Source: Mobula hypostoma (taxonomy: Eukaryota). Taken from it: 64,000 nucleotides of DNA. The notes beneath the pieces are model-generated. The model was not told where the DNA came from. It ran no database searches and was given only the letters and a program-made list of their open reading frames with translations. The number at the start of each line of letters is the position of its first letter. The stretch's first letter is position 1. This document shows, one piece after another, positions 3,869-57,319 of the stretch. The stretch spans positions 33,730,001 through 33,794,000 of the forward strand of contig NC_086097.1 of assembly GCF_963921235.1 (NCBI RefSeq). The letters are read 5' to 3'. The position numbers were made by a program, and so were the translations under genes.

Positions 3869-4689
3869 TGTTACAGACAAGTCAGTCTTGCATAGCAGCT
3901 TGGTGGCTCCAGGCTAGGTTCAGCCACCTGTCTAGTTTACAGGAGTTAGACATGAGTGGAGACAGATCTTCTGAAAGTCGACTTCACCTTTGAGATACAA
4001 AATACGTAATTAATATTATTTAGCATTGTGTGTGGAGCAGGAAGCAACAGACCAATTATCATGCCAGCACTTTGAAGAATGTTGTGACAAGCGTAGAAAG
4101 CACAGGGTCACTTCATTTACAGCCCTCTCAATTACGTGTTTTCAAAACAACAGCAGATGATTTTTATAAAAATAGAGCACACAGATATGCTGCAGTTTAA
4201 ACTCGTAACTAATACCAGAATTTATCATTCTTTTCATAGGACCTTTATAAGGGTTACAGGAAGAGGAAGAAATCTCTATTCTTGGATTCCTTACGGGTTT
4301 TCAGGCAACATGTGGGAACACCATGTAACACCAAGGGAAAATGGAAACCGGTACACAGTGAGATTCGGAAGGAAATAGGGTGGGGGGGGGAATAAGTTGA
4401 GATCTTTTGGAGAGAGAAATGAAACTTGCTTAGTAGCAGTGAGAGTTATTTAGATTCTGCTTACAATTAATCATCAACCCTTAAAAAATCCGGAAGTGGA
4501 GGTGCACTTTATAAAATATGAAAAAAAAAATCAGTTTCTCCACTGGTTTCGACATGTGTTCCTGATTCCATCTCTGAGAAAACCAGGCTGAAAATCCAAT
4601 GCCTTTCTTGAATAGCCAGTTGGATTTCTACAGTGCTTGCCTGAAGAAAGTTCAGGTATATGGATCTCAAGATGATATATGGTAACTTA

Positions 4690-4806
4690 CCCTCTGTGGC
4701 CACTTTTTTAGGTAGGCCTGAAACCTGCTCGTTAATGTAAATATCTAATCAGCCAATCATGTGGGAGCAACTCAATGCATAAAAGCATGCAGACATAGTC
4801 AAAGAG
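4690..4806 (+). mobile_element. Tc1-like non-autonomous DNA transposon, left part
   Basis: TA followed by a C(A/C)CTC(A/T)GTGGCCACTTT..TAGG TIR; colinear with the reverse complement of 22320-22440. Confidence 0.8.
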
Positions 4807-4809
4807 ATA

Positions 4810-6580
4810 CAGTAAAGAAGAAAAGAAGAGCTTACGAAAGGTTCAAAAAACTAGGTAATGATAGAGATCTAGAAGATTATAAGGCTAGCAGGAAGGAGCT
4901 TAAGAATGAAATTAGGAGAGCCAGAAGGGGCCATGAGAAGTCCTTGGTGGACAGGATTAAGGAAAACCGCAAGGCATTCTACAGGTATGTGAAGAGCAAG
5001 AGGATAAGACATGAGAGAACAGGACCAATCAAGTGTGACAGTGGAAAAGCATATATGGAATGGGAGAAGATAGCAGAGGCACTTAATGAGTACTTTGCTT
5101 CAGTATTTACAACGGAAAAGGATTGAGGTGATTGTAGGGATGATTTACAGCAGACTGAAAAGCTTGAGCATGTAGATATTAAGAAAGAGGATGTGCTGGA
5201 GCTTTTGGAAAGCGTCAAGTTGGATAAGTCACCGGGACTGGGTGAGATATACTCCAGGCTACTGTGGGAGGCAAGGGAGGAGATTGCTGATCCTCTGGCG
5301 ATGATCTTTGCATCATCAATGGGGACGGAGGAGGTTCCAGAGGATTGGAGGGTTGTGGATGTTGTTCCTTTATTCAAGAAAGGGAGTAGAGATAGCCTAG
5401 GAAATTATAGGCCAGTGAGTCTTACTTCAGTGGTTGGTAAGTTGATGGAGAAGATCCTGAGAGGCAGGATTTATGAACATTTGGAGAGGCATAATATGAT
5501 TAGGAATATACAGCATATGGCTTTGTCAAAGGCAGGTCATGCCTCATGAGCCTGATTGAATTTTTTGAGGATGTGACTAAACACAGTGATGAAGGTAGAT
5601 CTGTAGATGTAGTGTATATGGATTTCATTAAGGCATTTGACAAGGTACCCCATGCAAGGCTTATTGAGAAAGTAAGGAGGTATGGGATCCAAGGAGACAT
5701 TGCTATGTGGATCTAGAACTGGCTTGCTCAGAGAAGGCAAAGAGTGGTTGTAGATAGGTCATATTCTACATGGAGGTCGGTCACCAGTGGTGTGCTTCAG
5801 AGATCTGTTCTGGGACCCCTACTCTTCGTGATTTTTATAAATGACCTGGATGAGGAAATGGAGGGATGGGTCAGTAAGTTTGCTGATGACACAAAGGTTG
5901 GAGGTGTTGTAGATAGTGTGGAGGGCTGGCAGATGTTACAGTGGGACATCAATAGGATGCAAAACTGGGCTGAGAAGTGGCAACTGGAGTTCAACCCAGA
6001 TAAATGTGAGGTGGTCAAAAATAAGAACGAAATATAGTATTAATGGTAAGACTCTTGGCAGTATGGAGGATCAGAGGGATCTTGGGTTCTGAGTCCATAG
6101 GACAATCAAAGCTGCTGCACAGGTTGACTGTGTGGTTAAGAAGGCATATGGTGCATTGGCCTTCATGAAACGTGGGATTGAGTTTAGGAGCCAAGAGGTA
6201 ATATTACAGCTATATAGGACACTGGTCAGACCCCACTTGGAGTACTGTTCTCAGTTCTGGTCAGCTCACTACAGAAAGGATGTGGAAACTATAGAAAAGG
6301 TGCAGAGGAGATTTACAAGAATGTTGCCTGGATTGGGGAGCATGCCTTATGAGAATAGGTTGAGTGAACTTGGTCGTTTCTCCTTGGAGCAACAAAGGAT
6401 GAGAGGTGACCTGATAGAGGTGTCTGAGATGACATGAGGCATTGATTGTATGAATAATCAGAGACTTTTTCTCAGGGCTGAAATGGCTAACATGAGAGGG
6501 CACAGTTTTAAGGTGCTTGGAAGTAAGTACAGAGGAGATGTCAGGAGCAAGTTTTTTATGCAGAGGTTGGTGAGTACGTG
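4810..6580 (+). mobile_element. CR1 LINE ORF2 (RT), decayed; stops just before its 3' tail
   Basis: ORFs 4761..5126, 5193..5549, 5744..6037, 6132..6437 with NYRPVSLTS, KFADDTK and LVRPHLEYC. Confidence 0.93.
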
Positions 6581-8110
6581 AGGTCTATAAAAACCACCTG
6601 GTAGAGTTATTGACCCCTTCCTGTTCCTAACTTCCACCCACAGGGACTCAGTAGATAATCCCTCCATGACTTCCTCCTTTTCTGCAGCCATGACACTGTC
6701 TATAATCAACAGTGCCACGCCCCCACCTCTTTTGCCTCCCTCCCTATCCTTTCTGAAACATCTAAAGCCTGGCACTCAAAGTAACCATTCCTGCTCCTGA
6801 GCCATCCAAATCTCTGTAATGGCCAAAACATCATTGCTCCAAGTACTGATCCATGCTCTAAGCTCATCCGCTCTGTTCATGATACTCCTTGCATTAAAAT
6901 AGACACATCTCAAACCATCAGTCTGAGTGCATCCCTTCTCTATCACCTGCCTATCCTACCTTTCACACTGCCTACAAGCTTTGTGAGCCAACCTCCCCTT
7001 CCTCCATCTCTTCAGTTCAGTTCCCACACCCCAGCAATTCTAGTTTAAACTCTCCCCAACAGCCTTAGCAAACCTCCCTCCCAGGATATTGGTCCACCTC
7101 AGATTCAAGTGCAAGCCATCCTTTTTGTACAGGTCACGCCTGCCCCAAAAGAGGTCCCAATGATCCAGAAATCTGAATCCCTAATCCAACTACTCAGCCA
7201 CACATTTATCCTCCACCTCATTCTATTCCTATACTCACTGTCATGTAGCACAGGCAGTAATCCTGAGATTACTACCTTTGTGGTCCTGCTTCTCAACTTC
7301 CTTCCTAACTCCCTGTAGTCTGTTTTCAGGACCTCCTCCCTTTTCCTACTTATGTCGTTGGTACCAATATGTACCATGACCTCTGGCTGTTCACCTTCCC
7401 TCTTCAAGATATTATGGACACGATCAGAAACATCCTGGACCCTGGCACCTGGGAGGTAAACTACCATTCGTGTTTCTTTCCTGTGTCTACAGAACTGCCT
7501 GTCTGACCCCCTAACTATAGTGTCCCTTATCATGCTGCCATCCTCTTCCTTTCCCTACCCTTCTGAGTCACAGAGCCAGACTCTGCCAGAGGCACAACCA
7601 CAGGTGCTTCCCCCAGGTATGCCATCCCCCCACAACAGTACTCAAACAGGAGTACTTATTGGTAAGGGAGACAGCCAGAGGGGTACTCTCAAGTATCTGA
7701 CTCTTGCCCTTCCCTCTCCTGTTACCCACTTATCTGTCTCCCAAGGCCCTGGTATGACTACTGCCCATAGCTCCTCTCTATCACCTCTTCACTCTCCCTG
7801 ACCAGATGAAGGTCATCGAGCTGCATCTCCAATTCCCTAACCTGGTCCCTACGGAGCTGCAGTTTGATGCACCTGGTGCAGGTGTGGCCGTCTAGGAAGC
7901 TGGGAGTCTCCCAGACATCCCTCATCTGACACCTAATACAGAACACTGGCCTCACAGACATATTTCCTATTCCTCACAAGTTACTTGCCTCGCCTTGAAC
8001 CATTATCGCCGAAGCCCCGTTGAGCCAAAGCCCTCCAGCTCTGTCTCCCTCTGCTCTGGCACTCTCTCTATGAAGCTGGCTTCTTTTAAGTCCTTCCAGC
8101 CAGTCAAACT
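6581..8110 (-). mobile_element. CR1 LINE 5' portion: ORF1 (Zn finger plus SGNH/GDSL esterase-like domain) and start of ORF2 endonuclease
   Basis: ORF 7758..7961 has CxxC...TCxxC (CIRC..HTCTRC); ORF 7105..7533 has IRDTIVRG and VMVHIGTNDI; ORF 6458..6775 has FRKDREGGKRGGGVALLI and ESLWVEV..FYRP. Confidence 0.9.
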
Positions 8111-8294
8111 TGCTGATCTCCACATGCTTGTGCAGTCATGCCTCGATCTATTCTTTAGGTTTTGATAAAGGCCAGATATCTAAAACTTTATCCCTAGGTG
8201 GCCACGGTATTTGTTATGTATTTCAGATTTCCTTCAGTTATGGTCAGTCATTGATTTGCTGTGTAAATGTGAATCTAATTGTCATTTCCTAATG

Positions 8295-11220
8295 ATTCAA
8301 TACCAAGAAAAGGACTTATAAGGTAGCAAAAGTGGTTGAAAGTTGGATGATTGGGAAGCTTTTAAAATCCAACAAAAGATAACTAAAAAGCTATGAGAAG
8401 AGAAAAGATGAAATATGAGGACAAACTGGCCAATAATATATAGCAGGGTGATAAAAGTTTTTTCAGTTTTATAAAGAGTGAAAAAGGGGAGTGAGAGTTG
8501 ATATTGGACCACTGGAAATGATGCTGTTGCGGTGGTAGTGGGAGACAAAGAAATGCAGATGAAGCTAATGAGTACTTTGCATCAGTCTTCACTCTGGAAG
8601 ACACTAGCGGTGTGCCAGAGGTCCGTGAGTGTCAGGGAGCAGGAGTGAGTGCCATTGCTATTGCGAAGGAAAAAGTGCAGGGCAAACTCAAAGGTGTAAA
8701 GGTGGATAAGTCACCTGGACCAGATGAACTACATTCCAGAGTCCCGAGGGAGATTGCTGAAGAGATAACAGAAGTATTAGTCATGATCTTTCAAGAATCA
8801 CTTGATTCTGGCATAGCCCCAAAGGACTGGAAAATTGCAAATGTCACTCCACACTTTAAGAAGGGAATAAGGCAAAAGAAAGGATATTATAGGCCAGTTA
8901 GCCTAACTTCAATGGTTGGGAAAGTGTTGAAGTCTAAGGATGAGGTTTCGGGATACTTGGAGACTAATGATAAAATAAGTCAAAGTCATCATGGTTTCCG
9001 TAAAGGAAAATCTTGCCTGTCATATCTGTTAGAGTTCTTCAAGGAAGTAACAAACAAGGTGGACAAAGGAGAGGCAGTGGATGTCATTTACTTGGATTTT
9101 CAGAAGGCATTTGATAAGGTGCCACACATGAGACTGCTTAACAAAATAAAACTCTTATGGCGTTACAGGAAAGATACTGGCATGGATGGAAAAATGGCTG
9201 ACAGGCAGGAGACGGTGAGTGGAAATAACAGGGGTCAGTATTGGGACCACAGGTTTTCATATTGTTTGTCAATGATTTAGATAATTCAATTGACTTTGTG
9301 GCAAAGTTTGCAGATGATATGAAGATAGGTGGAGGGGTAGGTAGTGCTGAGGAAGCAATACGATTGCAGCAGAACTTTGACAAATTGGAAAAATGGGCAA
9401 AAAAGTGACATAGGGAATACAGTGTTGGGAAATGTAAGATAGTGTATTTTGGGAAAAGGAACAATAGTGCGGACTATTATTGAAATCGGGAGAAAAGTCA
9501 AACATCAGAGGTGCACAGGGATTTAGGAGTCCTCACGCATGACTCCCAGAAGGTTAATTTACAGTATGAGTTTGTTGTAAAGAATGCCAATGCAATGTTG
9601 GCATTTATTTAACCATATAACCATATAACAATTACAGCATCTCGGCCCTTCTAGTCCGTGCCGAACTCTTACTCTCACCTAGTCCCACCTACCTGCACTC
9701 ACCACGTAACCATCCATTCCTTTCCTGTCCATATATCTATCCAATTTAACTTTAAATGACAACATCAAACTTGCTTTAATCACTTCTGCTGGAAGCTCGT
9801 TCCACACAGCTACCACTCGCTGAGTAAAGAAGTTCTCCCTCATGTTACCCCTAAACTTTTGCCCTTTAACTCTCAACTCATGTCCTCTTGTTTAAATCTT
9901 CCCCACTCTCAATGGAAAAAAACCTATCCATGTCAACTCTATCTATCCCCCTCATGATTTTAAGTACCTCTATCAAGTCCCCCCTCAACCTTCTACGCTC
10001 CAAAGAATAAAGACCCAACTTGTTCAACCTTTCTCTGTAACTTAGAAGGTGAAATCCAGGCAACGTTCTAGTAAGTCTCCTCTGTACTCTCTCAATTTTG
10101 TTGACATCTTTCCTATAATTCAGTGACTAGAACTGTACACAATACTCCAAATTTGGCCTTACCAATGCCTTATACAATTTCAACATTTCATCCCGACTCC
10201 TATACTCAGTGCTCTGATTTATAAAGGCCAGCATACCGAAAGCTTTCTTCACCACTCTATCCATATGAGATTCCACCTTCCGGGAACTATGCACCATTAT
10301 TCCTAGATTCCTCTGCTCTACTGCATTCTTTAATGCCCTACCATTTACCATGTATGTCCTATTTTGATTAGTCCTACCAAAATGTAGCACTTCACATTTA
10401 TCAGCATTAAACTCCATCTGCCATCTTTCAGCCCACTCTTCTAAGTGGTCTAAATCTCTCTGCAAGCTTTGAAAACCTACTTCATTATCCACAACTTCAT
10501 CTATCTTAGTATCATCTGCATACTTACTAATCCAATTTACCACCCCATCATCCAGATCATTAATATATATGACAAACGAGATTTAATATACAGTACATGA
10601 CAAACAGGGGGAGTACAATACAAAAGCAAGGAGATAATGCTGAGGCTTTATCAGACACTAGTCAGGCTGCACTTTGAGTATTGTCAACAGTTTGGGCCCC
10701 ATATCTCAGAAAGGATGTGTTGTCAATGGAGAGAGTCCAGAGGAACTCATGGGGATGATTCCAGGAATGAAGGGGTTAACATATGAAGAGCGATAAGCAG
10801 CTTTGGGCCTGTACTCAATGGAATTTAGAGGAATGTGGGGGGATCTCATTGAAACCTACTGAATGTTGAAAGGACCAAGTAAGGTGGAGGTGGAAAGAAT
10901 ATTTCCTTTGGTGGAGTGTCCAGCACTAGAGGATACACTTTCAAAATTGAGGGGTGCCCTTTTAGAACAGAGGTAAGGAGGATTTTTTTAGCCAGTGAGT
11001 GGTGAATCTGTGGAATGCTCTGCCACAAACTGTAGTGGAGGCCAAGTATGTGGATATATTTAAAGTGGAAGTTGATAGTGTGCTGATCAGTCAAGGCATC
11101 AAAGGATATGGAAAAAAGGCAGGTGTATGGGGTTGAATGGGATCCAGGATCAGCCATGATGGAATGGCAGACCAGACTCAATGGACTGAATGGCCTAATT
11201 CTGCTCCTATGTCTTATGTT
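8295..11220 (+). mobile_element. CR1 LINE ORF2 plus tail, interrupted by a younger antisense CR1 at 9611-10600
   Basis: ORF 8612..9280 has YRPVSLTS and YLDFQKAFDKVPH. Sequence resumes at ~10605 and ends in the tail ...tggcctaattctgctcctatgtcttatg. Confidence 0.9.
9611..10577 (-). mobile_element. CR1 LINE 3' part, family with (TATATGGT)n tail
   Basis: ORFs 10127..10543, 9878..10063, 9679..9876 are nearly identical to 17721..18617; tail aaccatataaccatataac at ~9611. Confidence 0.93.
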
Positions 11221-11221
11221 A

Positions 11222-11660
11222 TTATACTGGAAAAAATGCAGAAAAGATTTACAAGGATGATGCCACAACTTAAAGGAATGAGTGATAGGGGGAGGGTGGA
11301 CAGGTTAGGACTTGTTTCCCTTGGAATGTAGCAGACTGAGAGGTTGTTTCTAGAGCTGTGCCAAATCATGAGGGGCATAGATAGGGTAAATGTTTTTTTT
11401 CTCTCAGTTGGGAAAGCAAGAACTAGAGAATATAGGTTTAAGTTTAAAGGCGAAATAATTAATAGAAATCTGAGGGAAAGTTTGTTACACAGAGGGCAAT
11501 TCATACATGGAACGAGCTTGAGAGGAGAATTGGAAAGTACACAGAGAGAAGGTTTAGAAGGATGTGAGTCAGGTGAACAAGCTTGAATGAACATGTTTAT
11601 CCGTATGGAACAGTTGGGCTGAAGGGCTTGTTTCCGTGCCGTATGTCTTCATGACAATGA
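11222..11660 (+). mobile_element. Old CR1 3' fragment
   Basis: LEKMQKRFTRMMP and IMRGIDRV; tail gggctgaagggcttgtttccgtgc. Confidence 0.75.
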
Positions 11661-11764
11661 CCTAATCCTGCTCCTTTCTTTGTGTTTCTATGAGATACGA
11701 CAGCACGTAAGGCTTCTTGGTGCTGGCACACACATTTACCAACCTTAAATGTATACTAAATATA

Positions 11765-12030
11765 AATACTTCAGGAACAGCTTCTTCCCCTCTGCCATCT
11801 GATTCCTAAATGGACATTGAACCTGTGAACACTACCTCACTTTTTAAATCATTATTTCTGTTTCTGCAACTATTTTAAAATGTTATACATAGACACACAC
11901 ACATACATACACTTACTGTAATTTATTTATTTATTTCTATATTGCCAAGTATTTCATTGTACTGCTGCTGCTAAGTTAACAAGTTTCACAACATACACCA
12001 GTGATAGTAATTCTGATTCTGATTCTGAAG
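11765..12030 (+). mobile_element. Rex1/Babar-type LINE 3' tail
   Basis: ttcaggaacagcttcttcccctctgccatc (FRNSFFPSAI) and terminal (TTCTGA)n. Confidence 0.7.
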
Positions 12031-12410
12031 AAAGCATAGATTTATTCTTTACAATCTAAGTGTAGAGTTAAATGAGGTTGCTAAGTAGCATATTAGTGGT
12101 GATCAGTAAGTTGTATTTATGAGCCTCTTTAGGGCCATTCCAACAACTACCCTCTCACTGAACATTCATCATGCATTTCAGAGAATAAAAATCTCTAAAA
12201 TATTTCTATGTTGGAGGAAAGTTCATAGGCATGTCAGTTCTCTTCTGTTATAATTCTTGTGTGAGTTAAACAATCCAGCAATTTTAATTAAAATACTAAA
12301 GCTTCTGTTAATTAAGTTGCCATCCAAATGAAACCCTTGACCTTTTTCCCCTGGTCTGTGAGCTGGCTCTATTTAAAGTTCAATATAAGTTCATTAACAA
12401 ATAACATCTA

Positions 12411-12835
12411 CACTCAGTGGCCACGTTATTAGGTATAGGGGTCGAACCTGATGTGGCCTTCTGCTGCTTTTGCTCATCCACTTCAAGGTTCAACACGTCA
12501 TGCATTTGGAGATGCTCTTCTGCACATCACTGTGGTAACACGCGGTTATTTGAGTTATTGTCACCTTCCTCTCAGCTTGAACTAGTCTGGCCATTCTCCT
12601 CTCATCACTCTCATTAACAAGGTGTTTACACCCACAACTGCTGCTCACTGGACTTTTGTTTTTGTTTTTCATAACATTCTCTGTAAACTCAAGACTGTTG
12701 TGTGTGAAAATCCCAAGAGATCAGCAGCTTATGAGGTGCTCAAGCCACCCCGTCTGGCACTCCAGTGTCAGCCAAAGTCACTGAGATCACATTTTTTCCC
12801 CATTGTGAGGTTTAGTCTGAACAACAATGGAATCT
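12411..12835 (-). mobile_element. Tc1-like non-autonomous DNA transposon, right part
   Basis: TA|CACTCAGTGGCCAC TIR at 12409-12424; transposase N-terminal remnant MGKKCDLSDFG on the minus strand. Confidence 0.85.
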
Positions 12836-13357
12836 GGAAACATAGAAGCCTACAGCACAGTGGGCACGTGGCCAAGTGGTTAAGGCATTGGACTAGCGAC
12901 CTGAAGGTCGTGAGTTTGAGCCCCAGCCGAGGGAACGTGTTGTGTCCTTGAGCAAGGCACTTAATCACACCTTGCCCTGCGATGACACGGGTGCCAAGCT
13001 GTATGGGTCCTAATGCCCTTCCCTTGGAGAACATTGGTGTCGTGGAGAGGGAAGACTTGCAGCATGGGCAACTGCTGGTCTTCCATACAACCTTGCAGGC
13101 CTGCGTCCTGGAGAGTGAAGACTTTCCAGGCGCAGATCCATGGTCTCGCAAGACTAACGGGTGCCTTTCCAGCAGAATACACGCCCTTCGGCCCTCAAAG
13201 CTGTGCCAAACATGTCCTTACCTTAGAAATTATCTAGGGTTACCCATAGCACTCAATTTTTCTGAGCTCCATGTATCTCTCTAGGAGTCTCTTAAAAGAT
13301 CCTACAGTATCCGCCTCCACCACTGTCACCAGCAGCACTGTCTGCGAAAAAAAATTT
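12836..13357 (-). mobile_element. CR1 3' tail (interrupted by a SINE)
   Basis: Reverse complement of VVEADTVGSFKRLLERYMELRKIE and a ...gtgctgtagg..tctatgtttc tail. Confidence 0.85.
12860..13169 (+). mobile_element. tRNA-derived SINE, apparently full length
   Basis: A box TGGCCAAGTGG, B box-like GAGTTTGAGCCC, body GTGTCCTTGAGCAAGGCACTTAA. Imperfect TSD cagcaca (12853-12859) / cagcaga (13170-13176); host CR1 tail is contiguous across it. Confidence 0.85.
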
Positions 13358-13522
13358 GTAGCAGAAACGATAGGGTCTTTTAAGAGACTCCTGGTAGGTA
13401 CAAGGAGCTTAGAAAAATAGAGGGCTATGGGTAACCCTAGGTAATTTCTAAAGTAAGCACATGTACAGCACAGCATTGTGGGCTGAAGGGCCAGTATTGT
13501 GCTGTAGGTTTTCTATATTTTT
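13358..13522 (+). mobile_element. CR1 3' tail, same family as 12836-13357, opposite orientation
   Basis: gatagggtcttttaagagactcctgg...gtattgtgctgtaggttttctat. Confidence 0.85.
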
Positions 13523-13534
13523 AATAGATCTTAC

Positions 13535-14430
13535 CCAGAGTAGGAATAAAGAGGGCCTTTTCTGGCTGGCTGCCAGTGACTAGCGGTATTCTTCAGGGGT
13601 CAGTATTGGGACCATAAGTTTTCATACTGTTTGTCAATGATTTAGATAATGCAATTGGTTTTGTGGCAATGTTTGTGTATGATTTGAAGGGGAGAAAATT
13701 CAAACATCAGAGGTGCAGAGGGACTTAGGAGTCCTCGTGCAAAACTCCCAGAAGGTTAATTTACTTGTTGAGTCTGTGATAAAGAAGGCAATTGCAATGT
13801 TGTCATTCATTTCAAGGGGAATAGAAAATTAAAGAAAGGAGATAATGCTGAGCCTTTATAAGATACTAGTCAGGCCACACTTGGAGTATTGTCAACAGTT
13901 TTGGGCCCCATATATCAAAAAGGATGTGTTGTCATTGGAGAGGGTCCAGAGGAGGTTCATGTGGATGATTCCAGGAATGAAGGGGTTAACATGTGTGGAG
14001 TGTTTGGCAGTTTTGGGCTTGTACTCACAGGAATTTAGAAGAATGCAGGAGAAGGGGATCTCATTGAAACCTACCGAATGTTGAAAGGTGGATGTGGAGA
14101 GGATGTTTCCTCTGGTGGGAGTGTCCAGAACTAGAGGACACAGCCTCAAAATTGAAGGGTGACCTTTTAGAACAGAGGTAAGGAAGAATTTTTTAGCCAG
14201 AGATTGGTGGATCTGTGGAATGCTCTGCCACAGACTGCAGAGGAGGCCAGGTCTGTAGGTATATTTAACGTGGAAGTTGATAGTTTTCCGATTTGTTAGG
14301 GCATCAAAGGATATGGTGAGAAGACAGGTGTACGGGGTTGATTGGGATCTGGCATCAGCCATGATGGAATGGCGGAGCAGACTCGATGGGCTGAATAGCT
14401 TAATTTGCTCCTATGTCTTATAGTCCTATG
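13535..14430 (+). mobile_element. CR1 3' part with internal deletion
   Basis: LYKILVRPHLEYCQQFWAPY; same tail family as 8295-11220. Confidence 0.88.
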
Positions 14431-16064: not shown

Positions 16065-16560
16065 TACAGGAACACTGTGAAGCCATTGGGTCCAACAAGT
16101 CTGCTCTGCCATTCCATCATGGATGAGTTATTATCCCTCTCAAAACCATTCTTCTGCCTTCTCCCTGTAACCTTCGTTGGCCTGGCGAATCAAGAACTGA
16201 TAACCTCCGCTTTAGATATACTCAGTGACTTGAGCTCCACGGCCGTCGTGGCAATAAACTCCACAGATTCACCACCTGCTGGCTAAAGAAATTCCTCCTC
16301 ATCTCTGTTCTAAGTGGACATCCCTCTATTCTGAGGCTGTGCCATCTGGCCCTAGGCTCGCCCACTATAGGAAGCATCCTCTCCATATCCACCCTATCTA
16401 GGCTTTTCAATCTTCAATAGGTTTCAATGAGATCCCCCCCCCCTTATTTTTTTAAACTCCAATGAGTACAGGCCCAGAGCCATCAAATACTCCTCAAATG
16501 ATAATCCTTTCGTTCCTGGAATCATTCTCATGAGTCTCCTCCAATGTCAGGACATCTGTT
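16065..16560 (-). mobile_element. CR1 3' fragment
   Basis: LDRVDMERMLPIVGEPRARWHSLRIEG..RRNFFSQ. Confidence 0.8.
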
Positions 16561-16575
16561 TCATTTATTGTGCAT

Positions 16576-19215
16576 TGTTACGAACTATAACGTTGTAGAA
16601 ACAAACCAGCAGCAAGAGATCTCACACGGAGTCAGGTTTTAATGTTAAAACCACTATCTTTATTAGTATCTACTTATAATATAGTAACTCAACCAAGATA
16701 AACAAAAGTTAACAGTGTTATGTGTGTAAATCTAACTCCCAACCTATTGAGCTTGGGGAACAAGGTTTAGAGTCCTGAAATGGTAAAGTAGGAAAGTTCA
16801 GTAATCCACGAAATAAATGATGGGAGCGAGATATTTTGTAATCCACATTGTAAAGTTGTTATCATGTTGTAATAAATCCAAAGGGTTTCTGCAGTTATAT
16901 TAATAGCAAAAGGATAGTGAGGGATAAAATTGGTCCCTTAGAGAATCAGAGTGGACGGCTATGTGCGGAGCCAAAAGAGTTGGGGGAGATTTTGAACAAT
17001 TTCTTTTCTTCGGTATTCACTAAGGAGAAGGATATTGAATTGTGTAAGGTAAGGGAAACAAGTAGGGTAGTTATGGAAACTATGATGATTAAAGAAGAGG
17101 AAGTACTGGTGCTTTTAAGGAACATAAAAGTGGATAAGTCTCCGGGTCCTGACAGGATATTCCCTAGGACCTTGAGAGAAGTCAGTGTGGAAATAGCAGG
17201 GGCTCTGATAGAAATATTTCAAATGTCATTAGAAACGGGGATGGTGCCAGAGGATTGGCGTATTGCTCATGTTGTTTCATTGTTTAAAAAGGGTTCTAAG
17301 AGTAAACCTAGCAATTATCGGCCTGTGAGTTTGACGTCAGTGGTGGGTAAATTGTTGGAAAGTATTCTTAGAGATGGTATATATAATTATCTGGATAGAC
17401 AGGGTCTGATTAGGAACAGTCAACATGGATTTGTGCGTGGATTGTCATGTTTGACAAATCTTACTGAATTTTTTGAAGAGGTTACTAGGAAAGTTGACGA
17501 GGGTAAAGTGGTGGATGTTGTCTATATGGACTTCAGTAAGGCCTTTGACAAGGATCCACACGGAAGGTTAGTTAGGAAGGTTCAATCGTTAGGTATTAAT
17601 TTAGTAAAATGGATTCAGCAGTGACTGGATGGGAGACGCCAGAGAGTAGTTGTGGATAACTGTTTGTCAGGTTGGAGGCCGGTGTCTAGTGGTGTGCCTC
17701 AGTAATCTGTACTGGGTCTAATGTTGTTTGTCATATATATTAATGATCTGGATGATGGGATGGTAAACTGGATTAGTAAGTATGCAGATGATACTAAGAT
17801 AGGTGGAGTTGTGGATAATGAAGTGGGTTTTCAAAGCTTGCAGGCAGATTTAGGCCAGTTAGAAGAGTGGGCTGAAAGATGGCAGATGGAGTTTAATGCT
17901 GATAAATGTGAGGTGCTACATTTTTGTAGGACTAATCAAAATAGGACATACATGGTAAATGGTAGGGCATTGAAGAATGCAGTAGAACAGAGGGATCTAG
18001 GAATAATGGTGCATTGTTCCCTGAAGGTGGAATCTCATGTGGATAGGGTGGTGAAGAAAGCTTTTGGTTTGCTAGCCTTTATAAATCAGGGCATTGAGCA
18101 TAGGAGTTGGGATGTAATGTTGAAATTGTACAAGGCATTGGTAAGGACAAATTTGGAGTATTGTGTACAGTTTTGGTCACCGAATTATAGGAAAGATATC
18201 AACAAAATAGAGAGAGTACAGAGAGGATTTACTAGAATGTTACCTGGGTTTCATCTCCTAAGTTACAGAGAAAGGTTGAACAAGTTGTGTCTTTATTCTT
18301 TGCAGCGTAGAAGGTTGAGAAGGGACTTGATAGAGGTATTTAAAATTATGAGGGGGATAGACAGAGTTGATGTGGATAGGCCTTTTCCATTGAAAGTGGT
18401 GGAGATTCAAACAAGAGGATATGAGTTGAGAGTTACGGGGCAAAAGTTTACGGGTAACATGAGGGGGAACTTCTTTACCCAGAGAGTGGTAGCTGTGTGG
18501 AACGAGCTTCCAGCAGAAGTGGTTGAGGCAGGTTCGATGTTGTCATTTAAAGTAAAATTGGATAGCTATATGGACAGGAAAGGAATGGAGGGTTATGGGC
18601 TGAGTGCAGGTCGGTAGAACTAGGTGAGAGTAAGAGTTTGGCATGGACTAGAAGGGCTGAGATGGTCTGTTTCCATGCTGTAATTGTTATATGGTTATAT
18701 GGTTATATGATTAATGGAGAGAGAAAAGGTAAGTATGAAGTATTCCATAGGTTCCCAGCTGGTAAAGCGAGATAACAGTCGCCGTAGATCTTGTCCATCG
18801 TGGTGTTCCAAATCCACATATGAATTATTACGGAAAGTGACCTGTCACAGGCATATCGTCTTCCAGGGGTTACCACACAACATACCCAGGCAAGGGCTAC
18901 ACAAGTGGTCCCAGAAGATATCCCCAAAAATCCATTCCTATGGATTATACGAAGTGACAGTCACAGATTCGTTGTGCACCGTGTGCCGATATTTAACCCA
19001 CCCTTGTGGGCATAGGAAAGTTCCGAGCTTCAGCTGCGACAAGCGGAAGCTATCGGCTTCCCCAGTCTCACTCTACTACGACTGAAGGTCTCTCTCTCTC
19101 TCTGTCCGTGTAAAAATCTGAAGCAAACTCCTTCAGCCTGTGACGTCATAGTCCTGCTTCACTCAGGCGCTTAAAGTGACAGTCCACAGTAAACTGAACC
19201 TGTGGGTTCGTAACA
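16576..19215 (-). mobile_element. Solo LTR (~800 bp net; Gypsy- or ERV-type) interrupted by a CR1
   Basis: Perfect 10-bp inverted termini TGTTACGAAC...GTTCGTAACA; 4-bp TSD GCAT at 16572-16575 and 19216-19219; minus-strand AATAAA at 16659-16664 suggests orientation. Confidence 0.85.
16871..18709 (+). mobile_element. Relatively young 5'-truncated CR1, (TATATGGT)n tail family, inside the solo LTR
   Basis: ORFs 16917..17624 and 17721..18617 (RT; KYADDTK) separated by stop codons; tail ends ~18709. Confidence 0.95.
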
Positions 19216-19589
19216 GCATCATCTTTAATAACCTGGTTAGAATATGTGTTAGATTTACTCTGTGCTCCTGCTTAGAATGGGATGGTTAGTACAAGCGAAT
19301 GAGACCAAATCTGACATGTGCTAACTTTTATTTGGCTACTCAATCAAGATTTCTCATCTGCCCTTATTGAGGGCCTCATTGGCTACTTCCATTGCTAGTA
19401 GTTTTGGGACTGAGTGTCAGATGCATTCCTCTTATCCATCTCAATGTCCCAGGACTGAGCAATGGAGCATGGGGCTAAACTAACGGAAACAGGGAACAGG
19501 AAAAGTGAGAGAAAAGCTTGTACAGCATCTTCATCACCTATTCCTCTCCATTTACTTAACATTATTGGCTTATTGTCTGGCAAATCAGT

Positions 19590-21878: not shown

Positions 21879-22440
21879 ACACGTTGTACCACTTTATTAG
21901 GTCCCTGCTGTACCTAGTAAAGTGGCTATAGAGGTTATGTTCATGCTCTTCTGCTCCTGTAGTCCAAACCACTTCAAGGTTTGGCATATTGTGCATTCAG
22001 AGATGTTCTTCTGCACACCACTTGCGCGGTTATTTGAGTTACTGTCACCTTCTTGTCAGCTTGAAACAGTTTGGCCATTTTCCTCTGATCTCTCTCATTA
22101 GCAAGGCATTTATGCCCACAGAAACGCCGCTTGCTTTTTTTTGCATTTCCCACCATTCTCTGCAAACTCTAGAAACTGTTGTGTGTGAAAGTCTCAGGAG
22201 ATCACCTGTTTCTGAGATACTCAAACCACCCCATCTAACACCAACAGTCATTCCATTGTCTAAGTCATTTAGATTACATTTCTTCCCCATTCTGATGTTT
22301 GGTCTGAACAATACCTGAACCTCTTGACCATGTCTGCATACTTTTATACATTGAATTGCTTCCACAAGATTGGCTGATTATATATTTGCACTAATGAGCA
22401 GGTGTATAGGTGGTCCTCATAAAGAGGCCACAGGGTGTGA
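21879..22440 (-). mobile_element. Tc1-like non-autonomous transposon, near-complete deletion derivative
   Basis: Degenerate TIRs (cactttattagg...cctcataaagaggccacagggtg); ORF 22045..22365 MGKKCNLNDLDNGMTVGVRWGGLSISETGDLLRLSHTTVSRV (Tc1 HTH). Confidence 0.85.
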
Positions 22441-34030: not shown

Positions 34031-34214
34031 GGCAGTGAGAAGGAGAACGTTTTGCAATAACAAATATGCAAAAAATCCCATTGCAATGCTCCCATGAAAG
34101 TAACATCTCTTCATTGAAAGCCATGGAACAACAGCCATCTTTAAAATAATATTCAAGGCATTTGGGGGTCTGGGTCAGCATAACGATGAGCTGTGAAAGA
34201 CAGTGTGTGTGGAG

Positions 34215-34390
34215 CCATAGAAACACAGAAATCTACAGCACATTACAGGCCCTTCGGCCCACAATGTTGTGCTGACCATGTAACCTACTCTAGAAGCTGC
34301 CTAGAATTTCCCTAGCGCATAGCCCTCTAATTTTCTAAGCTCCATTTAGCTATCTAAGAGTCTCTTAAAAGACCCTGTTGTATTCGCCCC
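34215..34390 (-). mobile_element. CR1 3' tail
   Basis: catagaaacacagaaatctacagcacattacaggcccttcggccc. Confidence 0.75.
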
Positions 34391-44945: not shown

Positions 44946-46233
44946 GGAGCTGAAGATTCAGTAATTGATTGAGTGCAAAATGATCAAAACAAGCGGAATC
45001 ATACAAGCAATTCCAGACCCCATCCTGGCAAATCAACCTAAGCTCCTGATCTGTGATGATCCCAGCCCCCAACCTCACTCCATTTCCAGCTATCCGTTTA
45101 GCGCACACTTCAGACCCTCATTCTGGCTGCTAACCCACCCATCTTCCTGACTCCTGATGTTCTCACTCTGATTGAGTCTTCAGCCAGGCACTGACTTTTT
45201 ATATTTGCTTGTTGTCAGCATAGGACTTCAAATGCAATCTATCTCTTGTGATGGAATCTGTCTCTATTCACCAAGCACCAGGGAGAACCTTTCAGAGGAA
45301 CAAGTGATGCTTTATCAGTGGTCTTCAGAATATATGGCTGAGAATGCAGATCCGTGGATACTAGATCAGTGAATACTGACAATTTAGTGTACACCAACCA
45401 GTTGGACAATGGACTGCTCGATTGAGGGGAAAGTACACTTGCTCTGGGCTTTCTCATTGCCATAAGTAGGAGAGAGCTGAACTGCATATACAAACAAGAG
45501 AAAATCTGTGGATGCTGGAAATCCAAGCAACAGACACAGAAACTCAGGCCTGCTGAGTTCCTCCAGCATTTTTGTGTGAATTGCATATATATACTTACTG
45601 TAATTCTTTTTTTCTCTATATTTATTTATTATGTATTTCATTGTACTGCTGCCGTAAAGTTAACAAATTTCTTGACACATGCCCGTGATATTAAACCTGA
45701 TTCTAATTCTGAATTGGTCATTCAGATCCCAGGGAACAATAACCAACCTTTGTTTAACAAGCCGACTGAGATTGTGCAGAGGGCATAGTTTCACTATTTT
45801 AGGGCATGTTGAGCAGAATTAAGGCCATTCTTATTAACAGAGTGAATATAATTATCACTTCTTTTGTTAGCATTTTGGGCATTGCAATATACTGCAATGT
45901 TTTCCTGTCACTGTTGCTGCCTTTATACAATACCCTGTGCTCTACTAATGAGAAATAAAGACTGAACGATTTGCATTAACTCTCTATTTGATTTAACAAC
46001 CTTGGATTACCTTTGTAATTCTTGGTCTACAGCTAAGCAAGGCAAAGAACTTAGAGAGAAAGACGAAGAACTGTAGGAGTCTAGGACCAGAAGTCACAGC
46101 CTCAGAATAGAGGGACGTCCATTTAGAACAGAGATGGAGAGGAGTTTCTTCAGCCAGAAGGTGGTGAAGCTGTGGAATTCCTTGCCACAGTTGGCTGTGG
46201 AGGCCAGGTTATTGGGTGTACTTAAAGTGGAGG

Positions 46234-47283
46234 TGTCACAATGGCGGGGGCATTGGGAGCAAGGGTGGACCCAAATGCAAGACACATCTTGTGAGGTTAC
46301 GGTATGGACTCCGAGCCAGAGACTGGGCAAGGACCCAGTACCTAGGTCTTGCCTCGGGCTTGGACTCCAGAACCAGGCATGGACATGACATGGGCTAGGG
46401 AGAGAAGGAACATGGAAGAATAGAGCCTTGGTCTCAGGAGAGCAGATACATGGAACCATGGACACATACACAGAACACAGAGTCGGGACCCCTCCTTGGA
46501 AACAGGACATAGGGCCGGGACTCATGACCCCTGCGGGGCAATGGCAAGATGGCCTGACTTACCCCACGGAGGCGAGGACAAGACAAGACCAACACCAAAG
46601 AACAACACAGTTCCCATCTAGCTCCAGCGATAGAACAAGACCGAGGTGCAGGCGAGGGCTACAGACGAGGGCTAGAGGTGAGAGGGGAAGAGAAGGGATT
46701 CAGACAGGGGGGTAGGACAGGAATCACAGACCGCCAGGGCCAGGACTTGACTAGGTACTCGGATGCCGCCAGGGCCAGGACGACTTGGTACTCGGATGCC
46801 GCCAGGGCCAGGACTTGGACTTGGTCGTGGTACTTGGATGCCACCGGAGCCAGGACGTGGTACTTGGAACCTCTGGGTAGTGGCGAGCTCTAGACTCGGC
46901 CCAGGAACAGTAGACAGCGGCTCCTGATTCTCTCCGGCGGGTTAACTGACGGACCCACCTTGATGAGGAAACTTTGCAGACTTGCTTTGGCGAGGTAACT
47001 GGACAGGGTTGCTCTGGTGAGGAAGGGCGAATTACTGGCACTCGCTTCGGCAGAGACTAAGCTTGCTCCGGCCAGATGACATCAGCGCACCGTACCTTTG
47101 ATGACTTTTCAGAGGCACCCGTGCCAAACGGCTGAAAGCCGGAGACTATAAACTACCGGTTCAGCCGAACGTTAATTGCCTCTAATCACCAAAGCCGAGG
47201 GACACGGGAAAACAGGGAATCAACGGTCTGGATGGTAACATAAACAAGGTAAATTTAAAGGGACCCCAATCCAGGCCATGACA
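46234..47283 (-). mobile_element. Solo LTR, 1050 bp (Gypsy-like)
   Basis: Termini TGTCA...TGACA; 5-bp TSD GGAGG at 46229-46233 and 47284-47288; CpG-rich. Orientation inferred from a tgcatttgggtcc..tgaca end. Confidence 0.88.
46731..46868. repeat. Imperfect tandem repeat inside the LTR (~4 units of ~30-43 bp)
   Basis: Unit approximately ccgccagggccaggac(n)ggtactcggatg. Confidence 0.85.
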
Positions 47284-47482
47284 GGAGGTTGATAGGTTCT
47301 TGATTCATCAGGGCGTCAAACAATATATGGAGAAGGTAGGAAAATGGGATTGAGAGGGATAATAAATCAGCCATAACAGAATAGAGGAGCAGACTCAAAG
47401 GGCTGAATGGCCTAATTCTGCTCCCATGTCTTATGGTTTTATGGCCTAAGAATGGTTTTGTAATTTTGAGTAGTGATTACCC

Positions 47483-48455: not shown

Positions 48456-48767
48456 TCAGAAGGATGGGAGGTCCTTTATGGGTGGGTTTTCAGGCTCTTC
48501 TGCCTGATTTGCCTGCTTGTATATGAAGTAATGGTCTTTTTGTGGCTGCATCTTCCGAAGGATGGACTTGAGATGGTGAGGGACTGCGTTAGCAGCCAGT
48601 TGCATGCTCCTCTCCTCCACTACAAGGTGCACGCAGTAGTCCTCGGATTCTGAGACTCCAAACTTCTCAGCACACTGTTTGGACAGCTTCTCTGCAGTTG
48701 TCTCCGGGTTTATGGCAAATGTTTTGATGTTGCACCCATACTCTAAGAAGCACACGCTCAGGAAATC
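48456..48767 (-). CDS. RIN3: RIN3 terminal coding exon: Ras-association (RA) domain and stop
   Basis: Acceptor cattttgcAG|GAT at 48768/48767, phase 0, compatible with the upstream exon. Translates DFLSVCFLEYGCNIKTFAINPETTAEKLSKQCAEKFGV...QLAANAVPHHLKSILRKMQPQKDHYFIYKQ...DLPSF*, TGA at 48458-48456. DF..V..LE, QCAEKF and QLA..A.PH..K motifs fit the RIN3 RA domain. Confidence 0.92.
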   Translation of the reverse strand, partial: DFLSVCFLEYGCNIKTFAINPETTAEKLSKQCAEKFGVSESEDYCVHLVVEERSMQLAANAVPHHLKSILRKMQPQKDHYFIYKQANQAEEPENPPIKDLPSF

Positions 48768-48837
48768 CTGCAAAATGCGTAAGAAACAGATTGAAATGGA
48801 ATGAAAAGGCAACAGACGTAAACTGCATTTATCATTA

Positions 48838-55058: not shown

Positions 55059-57319
55059 ATAACTGCACTGTCCTTGGCCTTTCCCAGAAGGGTGAAGGTG
55101 GATCTTCCCCTGCAGTGGCTGCCGTTTAGCCTGTGGTGGCAAAATGAGTCTGTCAGAACCCTGCCTTCCTCTCCTGATTTATGAGGTTCTTGGAAAATGG
55201 AAATGGATAACATTGTGATCCTCTGTGATGGTTGACAGGGATCTGAGGGAACCACAAGATCACACCACGTTTTCCTTCATGTATTGACCTCTGAGCTTTC
55301 TGACTGTCTCTCTCTAGCAGAACAACATGTTTCTCCCCCACCCCGCTGTCCATAGAGATCTCAGCTACTTGGACTGACAGGCACAAAATTTAGCCCATCT
55401 TTCACATGAATTTCTACTTGTCCCATGGGCTGAAACTTGGCCCCATCCCTGTGGATGTGTCCAGAAGTACAGCTGAAGATCCCCTCTTTGGCAGAGGAAG
55501 ATACATTAGGGACTGTGAAGAGACTCTCAGATAAAAGAAAACTGGAGGGCTGTGTGAGAGGGAAGGGTTAGATTGACCTTAGAGTAGGTTGAAAGGTCGG
55601 CACACAATTGTAGCGGAAGGGTCCATATTTTGCTTCACTGTTCTATGTTCTATGTTCTTAGTTTTGCCTTTCATCAATATGCAATAAGAGTGATAAACAA
55701 TCAGTGTAAAAGTTTGGCATGGATTTGGCTGCCTGACTCTGTGACTCCATGACTCCATATTGAAGTTTCAGAAATGTATTCAATGCCCCCAAGCTCGTCA
55801 AGAGATCCCAACCCAGACCTGTCAGGTTGCTGCTGGAATTCAACAGCTGACATTTTTTGCTGATGCTTTTAAGACACAAATTATTAATAATCATAATGTT
55901 AACTGGATTACTTGGTTGTAAAGAGGCTGCACCTCAAAAGTTTAGAAAGGACAGGAAAAGTGGAATACAAATGTTTTCTTTCCCTCATTGTAGGATATAC
56001 AAAGCACTACTGGGTCAAATTGCCCTTCCTTTCCCTTCCCATCTATGTTAGGCAGGTAGGGTCTGAAGTGGTCCAACTTAGAGCTAACAGGTACAATGTG
56101 TTCTACTTTTATTGTATCAGGATCTCAAGACATACCTGATTTACAATTCCATTTGCTTTTGACATTATGAATCCCAGCAGATTGTGATTTCCCTATGAGT
56201 CATTTAGGAGAAGGGGAAGTGATCCCAGCGCCAACAACAAAGTCACCACCAAGATCCTGAAAGGGACTTACCAGTTGAGAGGTTGTTTCCATAGGCAAGA
56301 GAACCACTGCCTTAGGACATGTATTGATCATTTAAGACTAAGATGAGGAGTTTTTTTTTTAAATTACAGGGTTGTAAATCTTTGAAATCCTTTACCCCAA
56401 TAAGCTTTGGGTGCTGATTGCTTCAGATATTGAAGGCTGTGCCTGATTTACTTTTGGACTTTGTAAATCTGTGCATCGTGAACATAGATATGATGCACAG
56501 GGTTAGGTTTTGGAGATCACCCATGACATTATTGAATTCTGGTGCAGACTCTCGGTGCTGGACAGCCTACTCTGGTTTGTGCTTGTTATGATCACATGGG
56601 AATTACGCTCTTTGAGTCTAAATGTGTTTATGCAGAACTAACATTTGCTTTGCTCACTAAGGTTTCTTTTCACTTCAGTTTGTGCTGTGGCTGGAAACCA
56701 TGAAGTAATTGGAGCTGTTTCCTCTCAAGATGCATTTTAGCTGACACTCCCATTTAACTGTTTATGCAAACAGTCGGACTTTTTGATCTTCATTCTTTAA
56801 ATGCTGATTTGGCCTTATTGGGGAAGAAGAAAACCAAACTTGTTTCAATATACTACTTGGTACAATAGAAAGCAGGTGGTGATCAGTTCAGTACATTTTA
56901 ATTTGAAGAAGGTGTACTTTAAAGGGATTTTGTTTACAATATTATTTGCCATCACAGTGAGATTTAGTGTGGACGGGAGTTAATCTTTGTGTGAGAAGGT
57001 GATCAAAGAGAGCTATGCACCATGGAAACAGGCCTTTTGGCCCAACTGGTCCATGCTGAACGAGATGTCCTTGCTTGCCTGCATTTGGCTCATGACCCTG
57101 TAATTTGTTCCTATATGTATGCAGCTCCTCCCCAGGTTACAAGCACTTCACAGCTAGTGGTTGGGATTAAAAGTTGTTTATCCGTGTTTGGGGAGGCGGG
57201 AGTGAGCAAACGTGCCCTTCAGCCCGCTGTCCGTCACACCAATCCTACCCCAGCCGGTTTCACTCCTCTCTACGTGCCCATCAACTGCCCCGCGCCCACG
57301 CACAGCGAGCAGAGGGGGT

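Follow-up and report, generated by a model that had tools for sequence, protein, structure and literature searches.

Split Tc1-like and CR1 elements point to a 6.8-kb inversion in Mobula hypostoma

In a 64,000-nucleotide window of the Mobula hypostoma genome (contig NC_086097.1, positions 33,730,001 to 33,794,000), the pieces of one Tc1-like transposon and of two CR1 retrotransposons are distributed over both strands. How did these elements come to be split? The first-pass annotation had proposed an inversion of about 6.75 kb joining both split elements, and the sequences and strands that it quoted were all as written. Its proposal was borne out. Judged from the sequence, the block 6581-13357 (6,777 bp) has in all probability been inverted, because the halves of the broken elements and their target duplications occupy opposite strands (Table 1). 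A single flip of this block rebuilds a Tc1-like element that contains one CR1, and sets a second CR1 between exact 8-bp duplications. With matching Tc1-like and CR1 halves lying on opposite strands across 6580 and 13357, we regard the flip of the 6.8-kb block as almost certain.

Table 1. Features in and around the putatively inverted block (window coordinates)
Feature	Position	Strand	Basis or remark
Tc1/mariner-like left half, apparently non-autonomous (TA, terminal repeat, first ~125 bp)	4688..4813	+	Matches unbroken copy
Target duplication 1, left copy	4805..4813	+	AGAT exact; up to 9 bp with 2-4 changes
CR1 copy a body, 5'-truncated, decayed, ORF2 codons ~308-901	4814..6580	+	tblastn to P0007; ends at left breakpoint
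Left breakpoint: tail-to-tail junction of two tail-less CR1 pieces	6580..6581		Two-strand translations vs reference ORF2s
CR1 copy b 5' part: leader, esterase-like ORF1 (ATG at 7961), ORF2 endonuclease codons 6-119	6581..8144	-	ORF2 alignment, profile search
Target duplication 2 (AATAGATC), before 5' end of CR1 b	8145..8152	-	Identical to 13523-13530
Second CR1 family inside flipped block	8296-11226	+	Passenger repeat
Nested CR1 within second CR1 family	9607-10597	-	Passenger repeat
Further short CR1	11227-11655	+	Passenger repeat in flipped block
Tc1-like right half with terminal repeat and TA	12409..12835	-	Matches unbroken copy; begins with target duplication 1
Target duplication 1, right copy	12835→12827	-	Start of right Tc1-like half
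CR1 copy a 3' tail, ~185 bp, from ORF2 codon 904	12836..13336	-	ORF2 alignment; split by SINE-like insert
SINE-like insert, 310 bp, tRNA-like head	12860..13169	+	Label by eye; flanks CAGCACA / CAGCAGA
CR1 scrap, 21 bp, ORF2 codons ~892-897	13337..13357	-	In frame before tail a, 6-codon gap
Right breakpoint: head-to-head junction of two CR1 tails	13357..13358		Arms 83% alike, ~43-bp spacer
CR1 copy b 3' tail, 165 bp, from ORF2 codon ~910	13358..13522	+	ORF2 alignment
Target duplication 2 (AATAGATC), after tail of CR1 b	13523..13530	+	Identical to 8152-8145

The first element, which we take to be Tc1-like from its ends and its TA, is about 540 bp long and appears to be non-autonomous; in a search for a DD34E/D transposase domain, the sole matches were to helix-turn-helix models and fell below cut-off, and no solved structure matched. 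Its two pieces are, as had been claimed, consecutive halves of the copy at 21879-22440 on opposite strands: 4694-4812 matched 22433→22315 at 80.8% over 120 columns, and 12458-12824 matched 21948-22311 at 75.5% over 379 columns. The terminal inverted repeats (4688-4714 and 12409-12435) are 85% alike, both starting with TA. The left piece had been ended at 4806. We set its end from the continuation of the family in 141 contigs of run X5, one of the four public runs compared out of 23 listed (X1, X5, X9 and X17, from organisms A, B, C and G; matched at 91% likeness, which gave about 400,000 contigs derived from repeats in each run), which places it probably at about 4813. The two pieces then overlap by up to 9 bp, with only AGAT exact, an overlap no larger than a duplication. 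These four letters are not significant alone (other tail ends in the window give 3-6); target duplication 1 is backed by the collinearity of the Tc1-like halves. Inversion driven by the transposase was ruled out, the breakpoints not lying at Tc1 ends.

Copies a and b appear to be CR1-clade LINEs, by an ORF2 with endonuclease and reverse transcriptase; the name CR1 itself is presumed. RVT_1 (Pfam) scored 39.1 bits, above its cut-off, at 5717-6034 in copy a, the body of which has ray proteins (80-86%) as its closest named relatives. The CR1 pieces align at 60-73% to full-length endonuclease-RT proteins, and all those of copies a and b are collinear on one ORF2, which puts body and tails in one family. 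The body had been said to stop just before its tail, and it does, at codon 900-901 of the 936-aa reference ORF2 (P0007); the minus-strand tail beside the right Tc1-like piece resumes in the same frame. That tail had been given the whole span 13336→12836. A tail is present there, but 310 bp of the span (12860-13169) is a SINE-like insert, leaving a tail proper of about 185 bp.

In ORF1 of copy b, Lipase_GDSL_2 matched at E 8e-6 (26.9 bits, under its cut-off of 32.9), and the related OSK model scored 29.7 against a cut-off of 27. The 5' edge of copy b was bracketed in the public contigs by repeat depth at 7852 and single-copy depth at 8177, and a single-copy X1 contig (8023-8367) bridges the duplication at 8145-8152 with 0 differences. 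The exact 8-bp target duplication 2 is independent extra evidence for the inversion. Matches as good arose in 466 of 200,000 random anchored pairs and in 213 of 20,000 random 30x30 pairs; among 24 tail ends in the window only one reached eight letters, the next best reaching 6. The first-pass annotation had joined the CR1 5' part to the orphan plus-strand tail; the flip does restore this join, and what had been missed was the duplication and a loss of about 2.4 kb (ORF2 codons ~120-909) from the restored copy. Searches for DNA copies of this CR1 family gave 0 matches in viral contigs (0 of 5 candidates confirmed) and 0 in metagenome contigs (20 distant loci at 30-55% were left unused), and in genome contigs 0 of 169 candidates were confirmed.

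Could chance alone, with no inversion, have brought together six independent fragments, four of CR1 and two of Tc1? The region is mostly repeats, target duplication 1 is weak alone, and the exact 5' edge of copy b is not consensus-fixed. Chance would nevertheless have to supply Tc1 halves that complement each other, CR1 halves that do the same and an 8-mer repeated exactly where the ends require it, with one flip setting all of them right; we find this barely credible. A single twin-primed CR1 was ruled out by the two tails and the two different duplications.

Homologous recombination between two inverted copies might be suggested by the location of both breakpoints within a single CR1 family and by the clustering of three of the four broken ends around one CR1 position. 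Once the block is turned back, however, copies a and b are direct repeats, and recombination between inverted repeats is therefore extremely improbable. The junctions are tail-to-tail and head-to-head rather than collinear chimaeras, and the strands of the two target duplications contradict such an exchange. Among the features of retrotransposon recombination-mediated inversions, same-family elements stand at both breakpoints here; opposite directions and chimaeras are absent.

It is also very unlikely that the block is mis-oriented in the present assembly alone. Among the contigs listed (15 of 8,897 joints and 32 of about 736,000 pieces), none spans 6580 or 13357, and none of those listed from the four runs carries an un-inverted allele. 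Against a mis-join, the junctions are not near-identical repeats, and such an error would neither delete 2.4 kb nor create a mutated 21-bp scrap; eight single-copy pieces from X1, possibly the source sample, match with 0 differences, none of them crossing a breakpoint. Opposite-strand joints at 13228-13443 were rejected as evidence of inversion, as they derive from other CR1 copies that fit both tails. Nor do we count it as a finding that X9 and X17 yielded no long orthologous pieces. As a hint, the junction between the Tc1-like element and copy a is probably common to organism B, which differs by about 2%: position 4809 falls within a single-copy X5 contig, 32 or more letters from the contig's end.

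At the left breakpoint, the G at 6580 is compatible with either side and gives a 1-bp microhomology. The right breakpoint, previously put at about 13340, moves to 13357/13358, where the junction folds into a long hairpin (z -21). An overlap of 13337-13357 with 6549-6570 had been noted as a caveat implying staggered or templated breakpoints. The overlap is real, only 53 of 20,000 random 25-mers from the window scoring as well, and the caveat stands. The two stretches agree in 16 of 25 columns and have no departure from the reference proteins in common, so that the scrap may have come from copy b or from RNA rather than from a staggered cut.

The strong hairpin with its centre of about 43 bp would also explain why the tails start nearly in register, if one tail were a fold-back copy of the other, or if a hairpin centre had later been trimmed, making the right junction secondary. 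We think this improbable: each tail stops at its own target duplication, as a fold-back copy would not be expected to do, and the arms differ in 24 of 144 columns. Trimming of the hairpin centre is compatible with the explanation preferred below and indistinguishable from it here.

What, then, turned the block around? We favour, with modest confidence, breaks or template switches inside two already inserted CR1 copies of the same direction, joined without long homology. Pieces, strands and duplications being observed, we infer the order of events and the steps of breakage and reversed rejoining. A Tc1-like element would have been present at a TA and would have been entered by a 5'-truncated CR1 a (about 1.95 kb); a full-length CR1 b (about 4.1 kb) would have inserted in the same direction about 4.7 kb further on (today's distance), duplicating AATAGATC, and these two insertions may have come in either order. 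Copy a would then have been cut some 190 bp short of its 3' end; in copy b, breakage or resection would have removed ORF2 codons ~120-909. The middle piece would have been rejoined in reverse, with the 1-bp microhomology on the left and the 21-bp scrap, templated or captured, on the right. A SINE would have entered tail a before or after the flip.

Both tail-less CR1 pieces touch their duplications by their 5' ends, which is the polarity of finished insertions. Of the differences between the tails, 13 are transversions; against the 7% or so expected of twins from decay of the body (13 changes in 360 sites), the tail difference has a conditional P of 0.010, or 0.046 without CpG-type changes. 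This test is soft, pairs of another CR1 family in the window differing by 8.5-12.9% where 4.8% was expected (from only 3 changes), and it is weakened in that CR1 3' ends may differ between active masters. Copies a and b did not differ detectably in age, at low power (13 of 153 versus 1 of 17 conserved codons, P = 1).

A point against breakage of finished copies is that the tails are both short, with starts no more than about 18 bp apart; by a rough estimate, breaks falling independently and at random would give this about 0.5% of the time. Among other CR1-like copies in the window (lengths read by eye), 10 of 231 pairs lay within 30 bp, and in 7 of the 231 both were also at most 260 bp long. 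On the CR1 map the retained ends of a and b begin within 18-25 bp of each other, so the two copies may have paired transiently and thereby directed the breaks; clustering of tail lengths by itself does not separate breakage from a flip made during insertion. The preferred reading is weakened further because a two-tail and a no-tail bridge with swapped duplications form the pattern of L1-made reciprocal inversions.

A possible though distinctly less probable alternative is that CR1 insertion itself flipped the block, by two concurrent insertions or by a new insertion engaging a break in an older copy. One bridge would arise when short cDNAs primed at the two target sites met head to head, and the other when a free DNA end primed copying from within the RNA. 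The missing 2.4 kb would then never have been made into cDNA, and the overlap of about 30 bp would be an internal duplication of the twin-priming type. Each bridge is flanked by copies of two different target duplications. Swapped duplications with two-tailed and tail-less bridges are found in tumours PD0331a and PD0307a (available text of 10.1101/2024.08.27.596794). From the 3' end of the body to the 5' end of either tail is about 30 bp or less, in the size range of twin priming, for which the same source gives median deletions and duplications of 14.5 and 22 bp. An 18-bp gap in tail a straddles the end of the body, and the scrap has no departures in common with copy a, as if from an RNA template. 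In cells, L1 cDNA also undergoes recombination at breaks and with L1 copies in the genome (PMC13526784).

Against this, the 5'-end polarity of the tail-less pieces would need an extra priming step from a non-target end, the expected polarity (a 3' breakpoint at the duplication for the target-primed piece) being our reading of the twin-priming legend text (10.1101/2024.08.27.596794). The register of the 5' piece is off by 2.4 kb (about 790 codons), and the tails differ more than twins should (P 0.01-0.05). For ZfL2-1, of the L2 clade, the available part of PMC4245944 reports that 5' inversions were not seen, nor twin priming in culture. On this alternative the locus would be an inherited, CR1-made reciprocal inversion, a cartilaginous-fish fossil of the L1 tumour reaction in which a tail-repeat LINE of another clade flipped germ-line DNA.

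We compared the locus with known systems, taking each source as far as its available text goes. Lee et al. (2008) found two same-direction L1s at the breakpoints in 1 of 41 L1-associated human-chimpanzee inversions, and explained that case by breaks in both L1s and reversed repair (PMC2603318). Here too the breakpoints lie in LINE copies pointing the same way, and the ancestral state is read from target duplications; the differences are a CR1, a cartilaginous fish, the 2.4-kb loss, the 21-bp scrap, and polarity drawn from nested elements rather than an outgroup genome (PMC2603318). Reciprocal inversions and translocations made by L1 in tumours resemble it in their swapped duplications, their tail-less bridge, two 3' tails joined at their 5' breakpoints and, for body and tails, breakpoints within tens of bases (10.1101/2024.08.27.596794; 10.1101/2024.12.14.628481; PMC13526784). 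Unlike them, this locus has tail-less pieces with the polarity of finished insertions, one of them 2.4 kb out of register, and tails that look like independent copies, and it appears old and inherited rather than somatic (10.1101/2024.08.27.596794). Deletion-inversion complex variants likewise have flanking loss, a short junction insert and repeats at their breakpoints, but with microhomology of at least 3 bp against at most 1-2 bp here, where no gene is affected as far as seen (PMC6286558). Staggered-break inversions in Drosophila also leave a short sequence inverted at both breakpoints, of 46 bp to 1.9 kb rather than 21 bp; a large deletion sets the present case apart (PMC1885836). The accessible part of PMC13320814 left inversions aside and held nothing specific to this case. 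Our literature search, mostly of freely readable text without figures, found no report of a CR1-made inversion.

About nine-tenths of the flipped block is repeat, by a tally of repeat matches. Rfam and ARAGORN gave no match to the SINE-like insert, and its depth bin in X1 and X5 exceeded that in X9 and X17 by a factor of 7-38. The block lies past a RIN-family gene (VPS9 and RA domains), some 35 kb from the last of its coding exons that we saw, and we saw no host exon in the block.

On the preferred reading, breakage of two finished copies, the locus is a further small inversion, probably neutral, in DNA rich in repeats, and an event of a kind already known. As a method, it indicates that a single genome suffices to detect and polarise an inversion by means of nested elements and target duplications. 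If CR1 insertion itself flipped the block, a route of rearrangement documented for L1 would be seen to operate for CR1 also, and in the germ line; counting head-to-head tail pairs that have swapped duplications across the whole genome would put it directly to the test.

Self-comparison of the window showed that 4694-4812 pairs with 22433->22315, and 12458-12824 with 21948-22311, of the same unbroken ~560-bp element. Because both match this one element, they are consecutive halves, now on opposite strands, of what we take to be a Tc1-like transposon, a name backed by end and duplication features and not by a repeat-library call. Both outer ends carry TA first and then a 27-bp terminal repeat; the two repeats are 85% alike and today share the same orientation. 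The majority line of 141 family contigs past 4802 agrees with the window until about 4813, so the halves share up to 9 bp. The exact letters in this overlap are AGAT only; the halves agree on A against G in both the unbroken copy and the family line. Our reading of the overlap is a target duplication that has since decayed, though taken alone this is weak evidence. Position 4809 within it is the sole site with A in the window, C in organism B, and T in the family line.

A second duplication was found at the other CR1 element, copy b. AATAGATC lies at 8152->8145, abutting the presumed 5' end of its minus-strand part (an edge bracketed only, to 7852 to 8177), and again at 13523-13530, immediately past its plus-strand tail, tail b. 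It occurs four times in the window, both strands counted, and a match as good was seen in 466 of 200,000 random anchored pairs. Eight letters in common with the flank before the 5' end were found at 1 of 24 tail ends tested; the runner-up had 6. The pair is new evidence for an inversion. Since the Tc1-like halves and the AATAGATC copies both re-pair, a single flip of 6581-13357 mends two independent insertions, and it is very probable that this block has been inverted. The first-pass annotation, which had proposed the inversion, was correct, and the support for it is stronger than was given there. Turned back, the two CR1 copies point the same way, which rules out ordinary recombination between inverted repeats.

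The window DNA is of vertebrate type and rich in repeats, and the closest named relatives of a CR1 reverse-transcriptase piece are ray proteins (80 to 86% identity), which makes a ray the likely host. The VPS9 and RA exons fit the RIN-family gene of the first-pass annotation.

Exons in the window, and CR1 pieces as aligned to the reference ORF2 protein P0007 (936 aa)
Feature	Position	Strand	Assignment
VPS9-domain exon	59216-59359	minus	RIN-family gene
RA-domain exon	48564-48779	minus	RIN-family gene
Copy b 5' part	6925->6581	minus	P0007 codons 6-119
Copy a (CR1 in the Tc1-like element) body	4812-6578	plus	P0007 codons 308-900
Scrap (21-bp CR1 piece) and tail a	13353->13267	minus	P0007 codons 892-926

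By translation, the body of copy a stops in codon 901, the scrap is codons 892-897, and tails a and b begin at codons 904 and about 910; copy a is missing 7 bp and copy b codons about 120-909 (about 2.4 kb). One base is common to both sides of the left junction, and at the right junction the scrap is in frame with tail a over a 6-codon gap. The resemblance of 13337-13357 to 6549-6570, noticed earlier, proved to be above chance (53/20,000). Four of the five reference proteins shown have FFTQRV at the scrap position; copy a has FFMQRL and the scrap FFSQTV, so they share no departure. The scrap came from one of three sources: copy b, RNA, or copy a long ago. The minus tail holds a 310-bp SINE-like insert whose duplication agrees at 6/7 positions; this label and the name CR1 draw on features of domains, ends, and duplications, not on a repeat-library call. 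Organisms A and B have far more of the SINE-like family (12860-13169) than organisms C and G do (91% likeness), suggesting a later burst limited to some lineages. Two further short CR1 tails (34214-34390 and 55493-55660) start almost where tail b starts, hinting at a shared truncation point within this CR1 family.

Lee et al. (PMC2603318) report two same-direction elements in 1 of 41 L1-associated inversions and propose breaks in both. By analogy, the best reading here, which we favor modestly, is that both CR1 copies would already have been inserted in the same direction, with breaks in each and the middle piece rejoined reversed. The tail-less pieces of both copies touch their duplications by their 5' ends, the pattern of finished insertions, which counts for this reading. 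Of 144 columns compared, 24 differ between the tails, where 7% is expected of twins (P 0.01-0.05), although pairs from another family in the window exceed likewise, against a poorly measured expectation; different masters for simultaneous insertions could also account for the divergence. Two points count against breaks after insertion: neither tail is long and their starts are almost in register, and the arrangement as a whole is like that of L1-made reciprocal inversions in tumours (10.1101/2024.08.27.596794). The alternative is an inversion produced during CR1 insertion, which we consider possible but rather doubtful: it requires a skip of 2.4 kb and one more priming step, from a non-target end, and 5' inversions were absent for an L2-clade LINE in culture (PMC4245944). 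Decay of copies a and b showed no distinguishable difference, at low power.

Copies of a second CR1 family lie at 8296-11226 and ~13537-14430 (84 to 89% alike). Both are one codon short at roughly matching points (9229-9324 and 13594-13689), and they have in common a C at 9294 that differs from the majority letters of 113 contigs. Before copy b and the flip, they would have faced each other head to head with about 155 bp in between. This points either to a minor subfamily or to an inverted duplication that is local and older. Similar AT-rich flanks (16560-16880 and 18710-19217), by eye starting TGT (16601) and ending ACA (about 19217), are possibly a solo LTR split by the CR1 at about 16880-18708, itself within another CR1. 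A GC-rich, LTR-like ~1-kb insert (46226-47284), with TGTCA at its start and TGACA at its end, separates the two parts of a CR1 tail, 46075-46229 and 47285-47443.

We compared the window with contigs from four runs of four organisms, chosen from 23 runs. Among the pieces listed, none spanned either breakpoint, and run X1 (organism A), which may be the sample the window came from, showed 0 differences on 8 pieces. Run X5 (organism B) gave orthologous pieces flanking the left breakpoint on both sides, at about 2% difference, and probably has the Tc1/CR1-a junction in common with the window. Small rearrangements of this kind are already known; the inversion adds one more case, and we saw no functional consequence of it.
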